A stretch of 31,988 bases of DNA from a virus (Duplodnaviria > Caudoviricetes): positions 1 through 31,988 of IMG/VR virus record IMGVR_UViG_3300020044_001514. One strand, 5' to 3'. Position 1 is the first letter of the stretch, and every line of letters starts with the position of its first letter. The notes under the pieces are model-generated. The model saw only the letters and a list, made by a program, of their open reading frames with translations, did not search any database and was not told the origin of the DNA. A program made the position numbers and the translations under genes. Shown in pieces: positions 12,127 to 31,583 of the stretch.

Positions 12127-13134
12127 ATGCCAAAAACCAAAATCAGTGAGTACAGCGCAACCGCTAACTCCAACACAGACGTAGCGTCAATTAACATTGA
12201 CGAAGGCTGCGCGCCTAGCGGTATCAACAACGCTATTCGCGCTGTTATGGGTCATTTGAAAGACTTTCAGGCTGGCACTAACGGTGATTCGTTTAACGGC
12301 CCTGTTGGCACTACAACTGCTGCTGCTGGCGCTTTCACTACATTGTCAGCCTCTGGCAACGTAACGCTTGGCGATGCTTCTACTGATACTTTGAACGTTG
12401 GCAATGGCGGTCTTGTCAAAGATGCGTCAGGCAACGTAGGTATTGGTACGAGTTCACCATCGAAAAAATTAGAAGTCGGTGCTCTCGGCGCGTTCCGATT
12501 GCAGACTGGTTCGGTAACGATGGATTGCACCCCGACTGCGGGTGGCACTGATGGGTTTGTGTGGAACGTATCTGCTGGTTATTACGATTGGAGTATTGGC
12601 GCGGCGTCAAAGATGCGTATCGACTCCAGCGGTAACTTGCTGGTGGGGACTACAAGTCAAGTAAACGTAGCTAAATTTTCTTTTGTTGGTGATTTCTATA
12701 ACGCAAACGGAATGTCTCTTAAGACCACTAATGATGGTTCTAGCGCTCAATTTATTGGGTTTTTAAACTCGGCTGGAACTGTAATCGGCGGAGTAAATAG
12801 AGTTTCTACAACTAACGCTGTTGTTTACAACACTACATCCGATGAAAGGCTAAAGTCAAATATTGAAGATGCTGCGCCAGTTCTTGATAAATTGATGGAA
12901 GTAAAAGTTCGTCAATATGATTGGACAGAAGGTGATCTTCATCAAGATTATGGCTTTATAGCTCAAGAACTTGAGCCTTTGTTGGCTGGCGTAGTTACAA
13001 AAGGCAAAACAGAAGAAGATATTTGGCAATTGGATTACTCGCGACTTACGCCGCATTTGCTCAAAGCCCTCCAAGAACAACAAGCCATCATCACCACATT
13101 GACAGCCCGTATTGAAGCATTGGAGAACAAATGA
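12127..13134 (+). CDS. tail fibre with C-terminal intramolecular chaperone (peptidase S74) domain
   Basis: YNTTSDERLKSNI cleavage motif, GFIAQEL, LDYSRLTPHLLKALQE coiled coil; GNVGIGT and GNLLVGT fibre repeats. Confidence 0.88.
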   Translation: MPKTKISEYSATANSNTDVASINIDEGCAPSGINNAIRAVMGHLKDFQAGTNGDSFNGPVGTTTAAAGAFTTLSASGNVTLGDASTDTLNVGNGGLVKDASGNVGIGTSSPSKKLEVGALGAFRLQTGSVTMDCTPTAGGTDGFVWNVSAGYYDWSIGAASKMRIDSSGNLLVGTTSQVNVAKFSFVGDFYNANGMSLKTTNDGSSAQFIGFLNSAGTVIGGVNRVSTTNAVVYNTTSDERLKSNIEDAAPVLDKLMEVKVRQYDWTEGDLHQDYGFIAQELEPLLAGVVTKGKTEEDIWQLDYSRLTPHLLKALQEQQAIITTLTARIEALENK

Positions 13135-13430
13135 CCATCGAATTTAAAATTGCTCAACTTGAGCGTCAAACATCTGATGGTTTTGTGACCATAGTTCATT
13201 AGACTGCTTCTAAGACCGAAGGTGAGCACACTGTTGCCTCTTACGGCACAGTTGGTTTCAGTAAAGAAGACGGTGTAAACCTTATTCCTTTTGCTGACCT
13301 GACTGAAGCAGTTGTCATTGATTGGGTGAAAGAGAAGCTAGACGTTGAAGCTATGGAAACAGGCTTTGACGCTCAACTGGCTGAACTGGCTGCTCCTTCT
13401 AAAGCCTCTGGCTTGCCTTGGGGTGAGTAA
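13131..13430 (+). pseudogene. tail-fibre-associated protein (99 codons) interrupted by in-frame TAG at codon 24
   Basis: MTIEFKIAQLERQTSDGFVTIVH*TASK...IPFADLTEAVVIDWVK...SGLPWGE. ATGA and TAATG overlaps at both ends; TAG at 13200-13202. Confidence 0.75.
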
Positions 13431-17393: not shown

Positions 17394-18024
17394 GATTTTC
17401 TTTCAGTTCGTTGAGTTTTATAATTTTGCCATCTAGCTCTGTAAGGAACTTTTTGACTTCTTCTTCAAGCATTGCAATGTAAGCATCATCACGATCAACG
17501 CGCTTAACAAACAACTGCAATTCTGTTGGAAGTCGTGGGTCAAAACTCACAAAGTCACACCATTTGCGACCAGTACAAGCCATTTGCCATTGCATTTGAG
17601 TATTGTATTTGCCTGGTACTGTCTGACTCAATAATGTGTCAATGTGTGTCGCCGTGTTCGGGCATTTAATCTCAAGCTGTCCAACATCGCCCACAAGCCC
17701 GTCAGGAGAAGCGCCAGCAGCTTCAATCGTTGGGTGGGTAATCATGGCAACTTCATCCACTAAAACATCAGCATAAGCCTCATACGCTGCCCTAGCCAAT
17801 GGTTCGGTTTCAGTGCCCCATTGCATAGCTGAGTTTGAATAGGATTCGGCTACGGTGTTGGTCATACGCTCACAAACCAACTGAGCCATGTAGTTGTCGC
17901 GGCTGGTGCTGTAACCCGTCTTTGTCTTGGCGATAACGTCAGCAACACGGCTGGCGGTTACTTTTCCCAAGCGTTGTGCAAACCAAGCATCACTGCCTTG
18001 CGTAATTTCAAGCGAATTTTCCAT
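17380..18024 (-). CDS. YqaJ / lambda-exonuclease family recombination nuclease
   Basis: QGSDAWFAQRLGKVTASR, WGTETEPLAR, ASPDGLV, LEIKCP and QMQWQM motifs. Confidence 0.92.
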   Translation of the reverse strand: MENSLEITQGSDAWFAQRLGKVTASRVADVIAKTKTGYSTSRDNYMAQLVCERMTNTVAESYSNSAMQWGTETEPLARAAYEAYADVLVDEVAMITHPTIEAAGASPDGLVGDVGQLEIKCPNTATHIDTLLSQTVPGKYNTQMQWQMACTGRKWCDFVSFDPRLPTELQLFVKRVDRDDAYIAMLEEEVKKFLTELDGKIIKLNELKENHGIS

Positions 18025-18499
18025 AAAGTTCCTTTCGTTTTGTTTCATAAATCGCTTTTGCTTCATTTGGTGTTTCAAACACCCCAAGATGTAATTGTTT
18101 GCCTTTGTAACTAATCCTTGCTTGGAATTTTCCGTTTGCCATGTTTCTTACACCCATTGGCAAATCAATTCTTCTTGTTCTTTTTTTGTGATTCCATGCG
18201 TTTTCAAGAACGCTTGCTTCTCTAAGGTTTTGAATCTTGTCATCAAGTGAATTGCCATTTATATGGTCAACACAAGGATTTGGAAAATTTCCATAAACAT
18301 ACAAAAACATTAAACGACCACGTTTGTATCTTTTGCCGTTTATTTTTATGTGCCAATATTCCTTGCAATTAGCCATTGATGGGCATCCTGCTTCTTGTCC
18401 ATTAAGACGTTTGTGATGTTTTGATACGTTTTTCCAAACAAACTTTCCTTCATCTGGAAACACATCAAACAAGTTGATAAGGTCATGTTTTGTAATCAT
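18008..18499 (-). CDS. HNH endonuclease with AP2 domain (free-standing homing endonuclease)
   Basis: VDHINGNSLDDKIQNLR, then GV...GKFQARI....HLGVF; AT-rich. Confidence 0.85.
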   Translation of the reverse strand: MITKHDLINLFDVFPDEGKFVWKNVSKHHKRLNGQEAGCPSMANCKEYWHIKINGKRYKRGRLMFLYVYGNFPNPCVDHINGNSLDDKIQNLREASVLENAWNHKKRTRRIDLPMGVRNMANGKFQARISYKGKQLHLGVFETPNEAKAIYETKRKELYGKFA

Positions 18500-18534
18500 G
18501 CCCACATCGTATCACACAAGATGCCCTTGTTCAA

Positions 18535-22793: not shown

Positions 22794-23102
22794 ATGTCGT
22801 CTTACGCAGAACTAGAAATGAAAATTGTGCAATGGTCTGAAGCTCGCAAGATCATTCCAAACAGCACACCATTTGCACAGTCAATCAAAGCTGTTGAGGA
22901 AATCAACGAATTGGTTGATGCGTTGCGTGATAACAACAAGATTGAAGCTATTGATGCCATTGGCGACACAGTGGTTTGTTTAATCAACGTATGTGCCTTG
23001 CTTGATGTAAACCTAACCGATTGCTTGGAAGCTGCTTATGAGCAGATAAAAGATAGATCGGGTACAATGCGAGAGGATGGAATTTTTTATAAGGACAAGT
23101 AA
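22794..23102 (+). CDS. MazG-like all-alpha NTP pyrophosphohydrolase
   Basis: EEINEL...DAIGD..V.L...DCLEAAYEQIKDR.G motif. Confidence 0.85.
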   Translation: MSSYAELEMKIVQWSEARKIIPNSTPFAQSIKAVEEINELVDALRDNNKIEAIDAIGDTVVCLINVCALLDVNLTDCLEAAYEQIKDRSGTMREDGIFYKDK

Positions 23103-23749
23103 TGCGTGGCGTTTTCCAAAATCTTATTGGCATAAAAAGTGGCAAATTAACAGTAATTGATGGGCCATTTAAAAGAGAAAGTAAACCTGGCTCTTTTTGG
23201 CTGTGTCGATGTGATTGCGGAAAAACGCTAGATCATTACATTGGCTCAAACAGAATCATAAAAGAAACAACAAAAAGTTGTGGATGTTTTATGGTTGAGC
23301 GTGTAAAAGAATCCAACAAAACTCATGGTCTTACAAAAACACGAACTTACATATCATGGCGATCAATGTGGCAACGTTGCACAGACAAGTCACATAAAAG
23401 TTATGAGTATTACAAGACAAGAACTCCAGTTGATCGCTGGAAATCTTTTGAAATGTTTTTGTCAGACATTGGTGAAAGACCACCAAACACTTCACTTGAA
23501 CGAATAGACAACTCAAAGCCTTATGCTCCTGAAAATTGCAAATGGGCATCTAACAGAGATCAAACGTTAAACAGAAGTTCAACTATTGTTCTTTTTATCA
23601 ATGGCATTGAAATGTCAATGAGAGAGGCTTGTATGACTTTAGGAACAAATTACAACAGAGCAAAAGCAAGAGTAAGAAATGGATGGAATCCTTATGATGC
23701 TGTAACAAAAGAAAAAACAAATCGTTGGAAAAACGAAAAACAAGTGTGA
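23102..23749 (+). CDS. putative free-standing homing endonuclease (HNH-like)
   Basis: G.LTV...WLCRCDCG..KSCGC, SW.SMWQRC, SLERIDNSKPYAPENCKWA; AT-rich. Confidence 0.75.
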   Translation: MRGVFQNLIGIKSGKLTVIDGPFKRESKPGSFWLCRCDCGKTLDHYIGSNRIIKETTKSCGCFMVERVKESNKTHGLTKTRTYISWRSMWQRCTDKSHKSYEYYKTRTPVDRWKSFEMFLSDIGERPPNTSLERIDNSKPYAPENCKWASNRDQTLNRSSTIVLFINGIEMSMREACMTLGTNYNRAKARVRNGWNPYDAVTKEKTNRWKNEKQV

Positions 23750-23760
23750 TATGATTTTCT

Positions 23761-23819
23761 GAAACATGGCTACCTTTAGCGGGGGAAAAGGCGATTCGTT
23801 ACCGCCCTGCCAATGTTTC
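23761..23819 (+). ncRNA. candidate three-way-junction leader RNA upstream of replication gene
   Basis: P1 gaaacat-ggc / gcc-a-atgtttc, P2 cctt/gggg, GAAAA linker, P3 ggcg/cgcc; extended -10 TGaTATGAT at 23747-23755. Confidence 0.5.
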
Positions 23820-23853
23820 TTTCAGTAACGACAACCGATAACGTGAGGTTTAA

Positions 23854-26905: not shown

Positions 26906-27198
26906 CACAAGATGAAATCATTGAGATGGCTAGACAGGCTGGTATGCGTTTAGATAAGCACAATGGTGGCTTTGTAGACGCATCCGAACTTAAACGCCTT
27001 GTCAAACTGGTGGAAGACAAAACAAGAAGAGAATTGCGCGAGGAAATCATTTACACATGGGTTCCACCTCATTTTGTTGATCTTGCTGTTAAGGATGAGC
27101 GTGAGGCGTGTGCAAATGTATGTGAGGCGTATCAAGACCCGTTTGCTGGGAAAGCTATGGCTGACGAAATCCGAGCAAGATCAGGAGATCAAAAATGA
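26902..27198 (+). CDS. modular protein, family B copy 2
   Basis: MTQDEIIEMARQAG / EREACANVCE / EIRAR linkers. Confidence 0.65.
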   Translation: MTQDEIIEMARQAGMRLDKHNGGFVDASELKRLVKLVEDKTRRELREEIIYTWVPPHFVDLAVKDEREACANVCEAYQDPFAGKAMADEIRARSGDQK

Positions 27199-27671
27199 TT
27201 ACGCAAGATGAATTAAAAGTTATGTTTGACTACAAGAATGGGCAATTGATTGCAAAAACTAAAAGCAAGTTTAGAGAAATTGGCGATGTTGTTGGCTCAT
27301 TGAATAGCAATGGCTATTTGGTTGCAAGCGTTAAGTCAAAGATTCATCGAGTTCATCGTTTAATTTTTTTGTGGCATCACGGTTTTATGCCAGAACAAGT
27401 TGACCATATAAATGGCGTTCGATGTGATAACAACATACAAAATTTACGACAAGCAACGTCAAGTCAAAACAATCAAAACAGAAAAGCAACGTCTAAGAGC
27501 GGTTTCAAAGGTGTTCATTGGCATAAACAGTCAAAAAAATGGGTTGCTTCTATTTGTATGAACAGAAAAAGTGTTCATCTTGGCTCTTATGCAACTAAAG
27601 AAGATGCCGCAAAAGTTGCAATAGATGCTAGAAAAAACATTCATGGCGAGTTTGCAAGAGGTGAAGCATGA
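27195..27671 (+). CDS. HNH endonuclease with AP2 domain
   Basis: HRLIF...VDHING.RCDN.I.NLR, SGFKGVHW....KWVASI, HGEFAR. Confidence 0.88.
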   Translation: MITQDELKVMFDYKNGQLIAKTKSKFREIGDVVGSLNSNGYLVASVKSKIHRVHRLIFLWHHGFMPEQVDHINGVRCDNNIQNLRQATSSQNNQNRKATSKSGFKGVHWHKQSKKWVASICMNRKSVHLGSYATKEDAAKVAIDARKNIHGEFARGEA

Positions 27672-27838
27672 AAACCGTACTAGCCCCAAATGCGCCATGG
27701 CCCGTTGTTAAGCCCGTTGTTAAGCGAACTGTGAAAAAACGGACAGAAAGGGCAAAGCAAAGCCAAATTGATGCAAACTTTGCTTTATGGCTAGAGCGTG
27801 AAGGCATAAATCTAATTGGAAAAAAGAAGATTCAATGA
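27668..27838 (+). CDS. small basic protein (56 aa)
   Basis: Read by hand: MKTVLAPNAPWPVVKP...; ATGA-coupled on both sides. Confidence 0.55.
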   Translation: MKTVLAPNAPWPVVKPVVKRTVKKRTERAKQSQIDANFALWLEREGINLIGKKKIQ

Positions 27839-28155
27839 TTGCAAGACCAAAACACCAGTATTTCAGAAGTAAGAAGCTGATGGAAGCGTACAGAGTAATC
27901 CCATGCCAAAACTGCTATGCAGAGGATGGAACTGTTTGCGGCGCTCATGCTAACTGGGGTTTTGGAAAGGGCATGGCAGTAAAGGCAGATGACAGCAAAT
28001 GCGCTAGTCTCTGCTTTTCATGCCATTCAATGCTAGATCAAGGTTCTAAGTTATCTAAAGAACAGCGCCAAGATTTATGGAATGAAGCCCACCAAAAGAC
28101 AGTAAACAGGCTAAAAGAGCAAGGTTTGTGGCCTAAAGAGCTGTTGACAAATTGA
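27835..28155 (+). CDS. YbcO/DUF1364-like zinc-binding HNH-fold nuclease
   Basis: CQNC...AH.N...GKGM..K.DD....LCFSCH..LD. Confidence 0.7.
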   Translation: MIARPKHQYFRSKKLMEAYRVIPCQNCYAEDGTVCGAHANWGFGKGMAVKADDSKCASLCFSCHSMLDQGSKLSKEQRQDLWNEAHQKTVNRLKEQGLWPKELLTN

Positions 28156-28170
28156 GTTTTTTGGTAAAAT
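28144..28170 (+). promoter_or_regulatory. sigma70-type promoter
   Basis: TTGACA (28144) and extended -10 TGgTAAAAT (28162-28170); spacer is only 15 nt. Confidence 0.6.
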
Positions 28171-28177
28171 CTAAGAA

Positions 28178-28592
28178 AACCAAGACGCATGAGGATTGGG
28201 TCATAAAATCGGTCAATGAGCCTCTGATAGTTTGGTGTCTTGCAAGCCAGCCAACTACAAGTTCTTAAACCCGATGAGATCATGGGAGTTGCTACCCTAA
28301 ACAGTCCTCAGCCGTGTTGGTGTCGTGGTTCTAGTCAAGCATCTGTCGGAAACAGAAGGGTAATCCGTAACACCCCCCAAACCAATTGACGACTGGTTCG
28401 CCAACAACTAACACGCATGAGGATTGGAAAAAGCCGAAAGTGACCTAATGCTCTGGTCTACATCTCTCGGTGATAGAGCATCCAGTCCTCAGTCGTGTTG
28501 GTTGAGAAATCGTTGATCTTGTTAAGTGGGTGAGTAGGCACACGCGATTAGTATCAAGCAACCCCCCGAGCCTTGCAAGGGAACCAACAACT
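28178..28592 (+). repeat. non-coding array of two alternating complementary repeats with four variable segments
   Basis: acgcatgaggattgg at 28185 and 28413; cagtcctcagYcgtgttggt at 28302 and 28483; ccaacaact at 28401 and 28584. Confidence 0.8.
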
Positions 28593-28611: not shown

Positions 28612-29028
28612 ATGGCTGGATTACTTGCACCTGCTGCTGAGATCAAGATTGAAATCGAGGAAATCGAGGCAGAAAAGCCTGTAATCGAAGGCTTGACCGC
28701 AGAATCAAACAAAAAGACACGCGACACTTTGGTGGAAACGCAAATGCTTGGCCCTGTTAAGACAGGTCAGCCAAATAGCGACTACTGGCGTGGTCTAGCA
28801 AACGTCTGGCGCATCTCTCCTGACCAAGCTAAACGCAACCTTTGCGCTAATTGCGAATACTTTGATGACCAGCCAGAAACATTGGAAGCAATGGAAGTTG
28901 TGCCTCAAGATGAGTTTGACAAAGACGGTGGTGGTCGCGGTTACTGCCACAAGTTCGAATTCATCTGCCACAACTTGCGTACTTGCAAGGCTTGGGAAAA
29001 AGCCGAGCCAATGAAGGAGGAAGACTGA
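28612..29028 (+). CDS. Cys-rich protein with HiPIP-like cysteine spacing
   Basis: ATG 28612 after aaagg; CANCEYF...GYCHKFEFIC....CKAW. Confidence 0.65.
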   Translation: MAGLLAPAAEIKIEIEEIEAEKPVIEGLTAESNKKTRDTLVETQMLGPVKTGQPNSDYWRGLANVWRISPDQAKRNLCANCEYFDDQPETLEAMEVVPQDEFDKDGGGRGYCHKFEFICHNLRTCKAWEKAEPMKEED

Positions 29029-29827: not shown

Positions 29828-30163
29828 ATGACTAAACAAAATGAAAATAGTGGAATGGGTCGCCCCAAAGGTAGCCCTAATAAGGCCACAGCCGCCGTTA
29901 GAGAGGCGATCGCAGTGTTCGCAGAGGGTAATGCCCATAAACTGCAAGAGTGGCTTGATGACGTTGCTATGGGTGTAGGTGGAAACCGACCAGACCCTGC
30001 AAAAGCTGCTGACCTATATCTCAGAGCGATTGAATATCACATTCCTAAGTTGGCTCGAACAGAATTGACTGGTAAAGATGGTGGCGCTCTTGAAGTGTCT
30101 AACTTGTCTGAAGATGAGTTGGATGCCAAGATCAAGGCTGCAATGTCTGCCTTAAATGGTTGA
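29828..30163 (+). CDS. terminase small subunit (putative)
   Basis: GRPKGSPNKAT and PKLARTELTGKDGG motifs; overlaps terL start. Confidence 0.75.
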   Translation: MTKQNENSGMGRPKGSPNKATAAVREAIAVFAEGNAHKLQEWLDDVAMGVGGNRPDPAKAADLYLRAIEYHIPKLARTELTGKDGGALEVSNLSEDELDAKIKAAMSALNG

Positions 30164-31583
30164 GAAGTTAGAACTTCTGATGCTGCTTGAGGAAAAGCAG
30201 CGCAGGCAATACGAATACCGATATAAATACATTTTTGGCAGTCTGTACGGCTGGCAACAAGAGTTCATCGGTGCTACTCACGACTACACGCAATGCTGCC
30301 TTATTGCTGCTAACCGTATTGGTAAGACGCATCTAGGCACATACATTGACGCAATTCATGCTTTAGGTGATTACCCTGAAGAATGGAATGGACACAAGTT
30401 TGAGCATCCACCATTGATTTGGTGTCTTGGCTACTCAGGCGAAAAGACACGCGACTTGCTTCAAGCTGCCATTGTTGGTAAGAAGCAGGGTGACAAGTTT
30501 ATGGGCGGCCTTGTGCCTGCCGATCGAATCGTTGGTCATGAATCAATGGCTGGAACGACAAACGCGCTTCGGTCTGTGTTTGTTCGCCATGCTTCTGGCG
30601 GAACTTCTACCATTCAGTTTTGGAGCTATTCACAAGGTCAACACGCCTTGATGGGTGACGCTGTTGATTGGTTCCATATTGACGAAGAACCAAGGGATAG
30701 GGCAATCTTTCCGCAGGTTCTTGTTCGTACAGCCACTGGCGACCATAACAAAGGTGGTCGTGGGATTCTCACGTTTACGCCTGAAAACGGCAGGACAGAG
30801 CTTGTCATTCAGTTCTTGGATTCTCCATCTCCTGCCCAATTCTGTATGCAGAAGGGTTGGGATGACGCGCCTCACTTGAGCGAAAAGGTTAAAACTGAAC
30901 TGCTTTCATCTTTTCCTGTTCACCAACGTGAGATGCGTACTCGCGGCGTTCCTATGCTTGGTCATGGTCGAATCTATGACTTTTCTGAGGAGTTGGTGTC
31001 GTGTGAGCCGTTTGAAGCGCCAGATCACTTCTTTGTCATTGATGGATGTGACTTCGGTTATGACCACCCACAAGCTCAAGTTCAATTGCTTTGGGATAAA
31101 GATTCAGATACTTTCTATGTCTCAAAGGCATGGAAGGCTCGCAATATGTCGCCTGCCCAGGCTTGGGGCGCTACAAAGAATTGGTCTGAAAATGTACCAA
31201 CGGCATGGCCTCAAGACGGATTGCAGACCGAAAAGGGAAGTAGCAAACAGCTAAAAGAGTATTACATCGAAGCTGGTTTCAATATGTTGCACGATCACGC
31301 TACTTGGCCTGATGGTGGCAACGGTGTTGAAGTTGGCTTGATGGAGATTCGAGATTTGATGGTAACTGGTCGTTTTAAGGTGTTTTCTGGCCTTAGAGAC
31401 TGGTTTGAGGAATTCACTCAGTACCATCGAGATGAGAATGGCAAGATTCACAAGTTGAAGGAAGACTTGCTTGATGCCACACGTTACGCCTATATGATGC
31501 GCCGATTCGCTGTGCAAAAGTCACAGGTTAGGTCTAATCTATGGGGCAAATCTATTAACCAACCAGCGAAATGGGTAGTCTGA
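30156..31583 (+). CDS. terL: terminase large subunit
   Basis: Walker A AANRIGKT, Walker B FHIDEEP, LTFTP coupling motif, nuclease DFGYDHP and EDLLDATRYA. Confidence 0.93.
   Translation: MVEKLELLMLLEEKQRRQYEYRYKYIFGSLYGWQQEFIGATHDYTQCCLIAANRIGKTHLGTYIDAIHALGDYPEEWNGHKFEHPPLIWCLGYSGEKTRDLLQAAIVGKKQGDKFMGGLVPADRIVGHESMAGTTNALRSVFVRHASGGTSTIQFWSYSQGQHALMGDAVDWFHIDEEPRDRAIFPQVLVRTATGDHNKGGRGILTFTPENGRTELVIQFLDSPSPAQFCMQKGWDDAPHLSEKVKTELLSSFPVHQREMRTRGVPMLGHGRIYDFSEELVSCEPFEAPDHFFVIDGCDFGYDHPQAQVQLLWDKDSDTFYVSKAWKARNMSPAQAWGATKNWSENVPTAWPQDGLQTEKGSSKQLKEYYIEAGFNMLHDHATWPDGGNGVEVGLMEIRDLMVTGRFKVFSGLRDWFEEFTQYHRDENGKIHKLKEDLLDATRYAYMMRRFAVQKSQVRSNLWGKSINQPAKWVV

Follow-up and report, generated by a model that had tools for sequence, protein, structure and literature searches.

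The Qin dicBF operon of E. coli contains, within a phage polycistron, two stalks that RNase III cuts on both arms, and four of these cuts have been mapped in vivo (1649182, 1649251, 1649454 and 1649584; PMC6212723). On the DNA sequence the 5′-arm cuts precede the A-W-G by one base and the 3′-arm cuts lie two bases beyond the fourth proximal position, a register identical to that predicted for the phage array described here; the fragment that follows the 3′ cut carries a GUUGUGG head. The operon differs from the array in its stalk sequence and in that DicF is a terminator-ended base-pairing sRNA (PMC10448788), and the passages on it in PMC10448788 and PMC6212723 describe no alternating slots or cassette exchange.

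The ban leaders of P1, P7 and D6 and the late leader of λ also resemble the array, repeated stalks in the same register alternating with self-closing units and tRNAs (the closing stems of P1 were read by eye). Their stalk sequence and host group are different, and the four segments of the array, S1 to S4, were not found in them. In the corresponding GenBank records the annotation is confined to tRNAs, small ORFs and a “dicF-like region.” P1 and P7 have one stalk fewer each than a P1-like plasmid, and the last P1 cassette resembles STnc100, scoring below the Rfam cut-off. A tRNA-Sec-like unit, just below the Rfam cut-off, occurs in the P7 and D6 leaders (L375 1817–1901; L376 1836–1920); the D6 record remarks on an apparent UGA serine anticodon.

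C4/CI antisense RNAs are small structured phage RNAs which a host RNase excises from a leader. The array resembles them (RF01695) in that its small structured RNAs are predicted to arise in this manner. The Rfam model gave no match, though it rings on a control locus, and no target was found in the phage's own genome; the commonest family in the second type of slot (B, see below) also failed as a C4 RNA on an Rfam scan. In type III antitoxin arrays a toxin gene is preceded by nearly identical repeats in tandem. This assignment was rejected, the segments being unrelated to each other and the window containing no Rfam antitoxin match.

Stalks which enclose a product are likewise found in rRNA operons and in T7 early RNA (R1.1), and share with the array an 11-bp helix, a UA/UG distal box, and G-C and U-A proximal pairs (PMC1540722); arrays of the present family differ in that, taken together, they enclose hundreds of unrelated small RNAs, and in having A.G at proximal position 3. 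The tRNAs of phage tRNA clusters, which are reported to counter anticodon nucleases (PMC11555353, PMC11464382, PMC10264068), occupy the same slots, and in many B units the geometry of acceptor and T arm is retained, although S1–S4 are without an anticodon arm. The parts (RNase III-cut phage leaders, DicF and tRNA clusters) are therefore known, and narrow literature searches found no description of the combined layout, a two-slot chassis with a shuffled RNA library. The supplementary files of Fremin 2023 (PMC10690425) that were searched held no match; its other candidate sets may hold such motifs. The preliminary description proposed an undescribed system, which within these searches holds for the layout but not for the stems, given the precedents in Qin dicBF, the P1 ban leader and the λ late leader.

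The window and its array

The window, that is, the whole stretch of DNA analyzed, is an entire virus record of 31,988 nt (91% complete), and encodes head, tail, lysis, recombination and replication genes. The array is flanked on one side by a YbcO/HNH-like ORF (27835–28155) and on the other by a series of ORFs that extends to the terminase large subunit gene (30156–31583). An exact sequence check agreed with the previously reported positions, order and segment lengths: R1 is found at 28185–28199 and 28413–28427, R2 at 28302–28321 and 28483–28502, and R3 at 28401–28409 and 28584–28592, with S1, S2, S3 and S4 measuring 102, 79, 55 and 81 nt. S1 and S3 are enclosed by R1/R2 stalks (A slot), and S2 and S4 occupy the B slot; the portion of R2 situated 3′ of the predicted cut at 28314 supplies the 5′ strand for the closing stem that follows. 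The features are as follows.

28144..28170 (+): promoter-like site, with TTGACA and an extended −10 (TG-n-TAAAAT) separated by 15 nt
28178..28199 (+): R1 and flank, 5′ arm of RNase III-type stem 1; predicted cut after 28187; score −26.6
28200..28301 (+): S1, structured RNA of the A slot, enclosed by stalk 1; predicted product 28188–28314
28302..28321 (+): R2, 3′ arm of stem 1; predicted cut after 28314
28322..28400 (+): S2, B-slot RNA; predicted product 28315–28415
28401..28409 (+): R3, 3′ strand of acceptor-like closing stem, and linker
28410..28427 (+): R1, 5′ arm of RNase III-type stem 2; predicted cut after 28415; score −24.1
28428..28482 (+): S3, A-slot structured RNA; predicted product 28416–28495
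28483..28502 (+): R2, 3′ arm of stem 2; predicted cut after 28495
28503..28583 (+): S4, B-slot RNA in which a covarying stem closes a conserved junction core
28584..28592 (+): R3, strand that closes the final cassette; no terminator 3′ of it
28612..29028 (+): first downstream ORF, 138 aa, no family; leads to the terminase large subunit gene (30156–31583)

The sigma70 promoter formerly placed before the array is present in its two hexamers, TTGACA (28144–28149) and TAAAAT (28165–28170), but a scan allowing spacers of 16–18 nt misses it because the spacer is only 15 nt. With a TG at 28162–28163, it reads as an extended −10 site from which transcription may start near 28177. The −10 is kept in same-locus relatives whose −35 differs, and a −10-like hexamer lies 5′ of the first stem in 55/175 loci versus 26 in control windows.

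As stated earlier, the array contains no credible ORF (an overlapping ORF of 81 aa on the minus strand has no Pfam match) and no cas gene was found among the 49 ORFs. The latter result, together with repeats that are alternating and complementary and segments (55–102 nt) that are conserved, led us to reject a CRISPR array, which has a single direct repeat, evenly sized unique spacers and cas genes. Two Rfam scans of the window, a comparison that had been recommended, showed no match on the array and none for S1–S4.

Elsewhere in the window an int-alpA RNA matches above the Rfam gathering score (39.9 bits) at 23763–23831 (+), between an HNH gene and a replication protein gene. This 32-kb genome carries three HNH endonuclease genes (18008–18505, 23102–23749 and 27195–27671), and 3′ of the tail fibre gene an ORF-like stretch (13131–13430) is apparently broken by an in-frame stop, as judged by eye.

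The R1/R2 stalk as a predicted RNase III site

The R1/R2 stems, with the 2×2 internal loop (C.Y, A.G) already noted for them, are present in the MFE fold and as inverted repeats I1 and I3. Support for the array RNAs comes from covariation and not from energy, since the whole region folds only modestly better than shuffles (z −2.1) and three of the four predicted products exhibit z values between −0.4 and −1.1. A loose stem scan of the whole window gave 34 matches, most likely chance, the three array stems having the strongest outer helices.

RNase III sites are characterized by an 11-bp helix with a distal box (UA/UG) and a proximal box (GC, AU/UA, AU, AU/UA),(PMC1540722) and by G-C and C-G pairs between the cuts (PMC6212723). 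Counting from the predicted cut at ACG^CAUG, the order in the stalk is C.Y, A.G, U-A, G-C, three free pairs, A-U, U.G and U-A. The comparison set comprised 370 sequences (369 loci and the window, whose own locus, L121, was dropped) with 328 distinct stalk cassettes; one stalk was found in 277 sequences, two in 73, three in nine, four in two and none in nine, and the stem finder made no match in 247,278 shuffled nt. Position 11 is paired in 319/328 cassettes and position 12 in only 144, which is chance-like beyond 11. At the distal box, which was placed at positions 9–10 in part from rows J and K of Table S4, U.G occupies position 9 in 291/328 and U-A is found in 325/328; the G-C and C-G between the cuts occur in 325 each, and the three middle pairs covary freely. 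Pairing at positions 3–10 was required by the finder, and most of the conserved letters were set by the patterns used for searching, for which reason the S1 homologues found by payload alone are the unbiased test of the stalk. These 19 sequences carry at least three different stalk sequences, with U-A at position 3 in 19/19, U-A at position 10 in 19/19, and U.G at position 9 in 17/19.

In the proximal box the first two pairs fit, the third being A.G and the fourth C.Y; R1.1 has U.C at this fourth position and is cut nonetheless (PMC1540722). The A.G mismatch and the short outer helix (only 7–8 bp) depart from the optimum, and one arm might therefore be only nicked or bound. An in vivo pair-frequency score was re-implemented from the pair table of PMC6212723, with thresholds of −25.5 (strict) and −33.8 (lenient); its rules derive from E. 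coli, and our version returns −22.7 for a site published at −23.9. Stem 2 of the window (−24.1) passes the strict threshold, and stem 1 (−26.6) misses it, passing the lenient one only. Within the family, 250/325 stems pass −25.5 and all pass −33.8, and the chosen register is the best of 13 in 298/325. The B stems, at −35, fail the threshold and were rejected as RNase III sites. RNase III is encoded in three bacterial genomes holding such stems and is not encoded in the window.

The stem statistics and this score bear out the earlier reading of a cassette-type small-RNA array with RNase III-type stems. The stems have the geometry of RNase III sites, and from sequence we predict with considerable confidence that the host enzyme cuts both arms. 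It is very improbable, in our estimation, that they are bound but not cut, thereby titrating the enzyme, or are cut by another nuclease. An invariant tandem mismatch does lie beside the predicted cut, and cleavage can be restricted or prevented by internal loops (PMC1540722), but the B stem starts exactly at the 3′-arm cut, tRNAs end 5 nt from the 5′-arm cut, and in the homologous Qin stems both arms undergo cleavage in vivo (PMC6212723).

Closing stems, payloads and exchange of units

In 195/316 cassettes, versus 19 when shuffled, a sequence 25–220 nt downstream is exactly complementary to the hexamer that begins at the predicted 3′ cut; for the hexamer one base earlier (offset −1) this holds in only 44/316, and another B-stem control is weak (257/316 versus 170 shuffled). 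Since the predicted cut is the very point at which the R2/R3 stem begins, the R1/R2 and R2/R3 folds are likely precursor and product. Both pairings are as had been claimed, but rather than the mutually exclusive states of a switch they are likely successive, before and after cutting.

The closing stem is of acceptor-stem length: a 5-bp hairpin abuts it in 25/119 B clusters versus 2–5 at other offsets, and the same hairpin is found in 3/187 A-slot cases. ACC or ACT stands 3′ of the stem in 152/236 B units. True tRNAs also fill the slots; 38/39 are on the array strand and in 7/10 cases the tRNA 3′ end is exactly 5 nt before the predicted stalk cut. T-arm hairpins are present in 15/298 payload clusters versus 0.2 shuffled, and anticodon-arm mimics show no enrichment (4/298 clusters versus up to 4 shuffled). 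S1–S4 were rejected as tRNAs, having no cloverleaf with an anticodon arm and CCA end; neither ARAGORN nor Rfam called a tRNA on the array. Four B-slot units in other loci (L193, L076, L231 and L280) are tRNA look-alikes with a D-arm start and a T arm, a long foreign insert replacing the anticodon arm.

BLAST clustering sorts the 553 distinct payloads into 298 clusters, probably an overcount because diverged families have probably been split; 186 are singletons and eight occur in both slots, and the Chao1 estimate is approximately 560. Over 142 payloads, folding z has a median of only −0.5. Judged by comparison of homologues, the payloads are conserved, covarying structured RNA families and not free variable spacers. 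Among the 19 S1 homologues, compensatory changes are seen in 15 of the 30 pairs, and 99.6% of cells pair versus 30–47% in slid controls (stalk included in both figures). S2 has the acceptor-like stem (28315–22/28399–406), a T-arm-like hairpin (28380–98) with no canonical T-loop which pairs in 35/35 cells with one compensatory change, and kissing loops (28347–50/28364–67). Four different loop 4-mers occur, complementing perfectly in 10 of 12 distinct sequences and in three of four pairs in the other two, with one further row unreadable; the covariation of S2 rests on 7–12 related sequences. S3 exhibits a z of −3.1, and two other variants of it were seen. The S4 core is closed in 11/11 distinct variants by a stem of 4–9 contiguous pairs of differing sequence. 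The motifs tcaagca and acccccc, reported as shared by S2 and S4, are probably chance, since most homologues of either segment do not keep them.

At the S1 apex (28238–28245) there is an invariant 8-nt palindrome that could allow dimerization, its conservation being partly imposed because it was in the search pattern. S3 (28428–28482) contains two competing helices with matching changes in the variants, seen by eye, and is possibly a pseudoknot or switch. In L416–L436 roughly half of the matches have the S4 core nested within a second family of scaffolds, such that modules both nest and alternate. One P1-type B family is common to relatives of the window and has weak matches in 1052/5426 E. coli genomes. 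A plasmid search gave no S1 match, and Rfam scans of further loci (20, 20, 11 and 20) returned only tRNAs and neighbours.

The search of metagenomes and phages for R1 and R2 that had been suggested at the outset revealed that unit number and segments vary and that the stems covary. An exact R2 19-mer is present in about 290 IMG/VR stretches, and a looser two-arm pattern in about 770 (20–50-nt loops) and about 580 (51–81-nt loops); these are estimates from partial scans that can overlap, and put the family on the order of a thousand stretches. In all but a few of 111 distinct loci an R1-like 15-mer lies 38–120 nt upstream. Ten GTDB contigs match, including three Burkholderiales MAGs, Fluviibacter and Polynucleobacter sp. 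UK-Kesae-W10, which suggests a Burkholderiales bacterium as host; in the last of these we read the array, which lies among phage-like ORFs near a repressor-like gene, as part of a prophage. Three small-share sequencing runs, probably of DNA, contained only related cassettes.

At the locus of the window, seven cassette combinations occur between the same promoter and the same downstream gene. In L106 and L394 the sequence is that of the window with exactly 181 nt missing between the copies of R2 (0 mismatches in 268 nt, tested on L394), S1 is paired with S4 or another B unit, and S4 with three different A units. The proposal of cassette exchange at the repeats is sustained by these relatives, in which units have been gained, lost and swapped there, probably through recombination; P1, P7 and the P1-like plasmid differ by units likewise.

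The attC sites of integrons have an invariant AAC/GTT core and extrahelical bases, and are served by an integrase. The precise unit indels recall such DNA-level recombination hairpins, as do the inverted arms, which terminate in AAC and GTT and surround a variable loop of comparable length. Of all the readings considered here we give this one the least credence: the 5′ core is AAG in 32%, the wobble pairs are G-U on the transcribed strand, there are no extrahelical bases, and no integrase was found among the 49 ORFs scanned of this 91% complete record.

Possible roles of the released RNAs

We propose that the late leader is transcribed from the extended −10 site and that R1 pairs with R2 in a stalk of 19–20 bp, the pairing being shown by covariation. 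Host RNase III would then, very probably, cut both arms after 28187/28314 and 28415/28495, leaving 2-nt 3′ overhangs. According to the register statistics, the A-slot RNAs (127 and 80 nt) would be released clamped by an 11-position helix, and the freed UGUUGG head would re-pair with R3 to form a tRNA-acceptor-like stem closing the B-slot RNAs. That these four exchangeable modules act in trans as decoys or tRNA-like mimics against host defences, binding proteins through tertiary folds rather than pairing with mRNA, is in our judgment an evenly balanced proposition. What favours protein-binding mimics is the conservation of junctions, together with kissing loops and T-arm hairpins, the use of the same slots by tRNAs, and the rapidity of the shuffling. 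More tentatively, phages of Proteobacteria may share the two-slot chassis as an RNA anti-defence island, filled from a shuffled repertoire that comprises several hundred structured RNAs serving as decoys for defence proteins.

The main rival, to which we assign a rather low probability, accepts the same processing and regards the RNAs as base-pairing regulators of host or competing-phage mRNAs, like DicF or Pas. DicF, the one characterized RNA of the homologous Qin layout, is indeed a base-pairing sRNA (PMC10448788), and a relation between STnc100 and PasD is described (bioRxiv 10.64898/2026.05.13.724894), the P1 cassette noted above resembling STnc100. Against this, the longest complements of S1–S4 in the own genome are 9–11 nt, like shuffles, and three bacterial genomes of candidate-host type yielded nothing beyond the prophage stems at E < 0.1, and no host-derived mimics; short seeds in the real host are still compatible with these results. 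Neither anti-SD words nor UNCG are enriched in the payloads, which are without terminators of their own and have conserved junctions and kissing loops. The antisense guides of the preliminary description, and the targets it had proposed to look for, thus found no counterpart in these genomes.

The stems may instead only cut or stabilize a late or early mRNA, the payloads being passengers or cis-acting leaders. There is no terminator after S4, and the last RNA may therefore stay on the late mRNA, where the unit would cap the processed packaging transcript. In some relatives the array is directly 5′ of the terminase large subunit gene, and a single stalk of this sequence type is what 277/370 loci possess. 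We nevertheless hold this to be improbable, and more so than base pairing, because payload families keep compensatory changes across unrelated contexts and stalks, which a single stabilizing hairpin would not need, and real tRNAs occupy the same slots.

The array had also been taken for the leader of the packaging operon. As a general link this fails: a terminase gene lies within approximately 1.5 kb downstream in only 17 of the 58 loci scanned (73 of 100 ORFs submitted), so that the array is not packaging-specific. In the other 41 no terminase match was found among the ORFs scanned, and elsewhere the array is upstream of polymerase, reductase, MazG or early genes. A pRNA of the φ29 type is a fixed RNA tied to the packaging motor. 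The position ahead of terminase, here and in those 17 loci, and the loop-loop pairing of S2 would suit such an RNA, yet several of the 41 loci precede polymerase, reductase or early genes and payloads differ among phages sharing the same downstream gene; we therefore think a packaging RNA highly improbable.

On the reading that we prefer, that of decoys, RNA-based counter-defence would extend well beyond tRNAs and CRISPR-repeat mimics; if the RNAs are not decoys, the chassis still explains the release of tRNAs and small RNAs from one phage leader. The data indicate hundreds of structured phage RNA families, those scanned being absent from Rfam, with ends predicted at single-base precision. The chassis is also a compact tool for obtaining several RNAs from one promoter, and the layout is open to trial in P1, P7, λ and the cultured Polynucleobacter strain with such a prophage.

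Further RNA-like units were seen beside arrays at other loci. Directly 3′ of the array in L031 (1269–1305, +) an abiF RNA match (55.2 bits, cut-off 37) doubles as a terminator-like hairpin and is possibly an antitoxin mimic. Terminator-ended units with anti-SD-like words adjoin the arrays in L005 (1785–1887), L056 (1310–1371) and L042 (1933–2004, −), and weakly match Burkholderia anti-hemB/toxic sRNA models.
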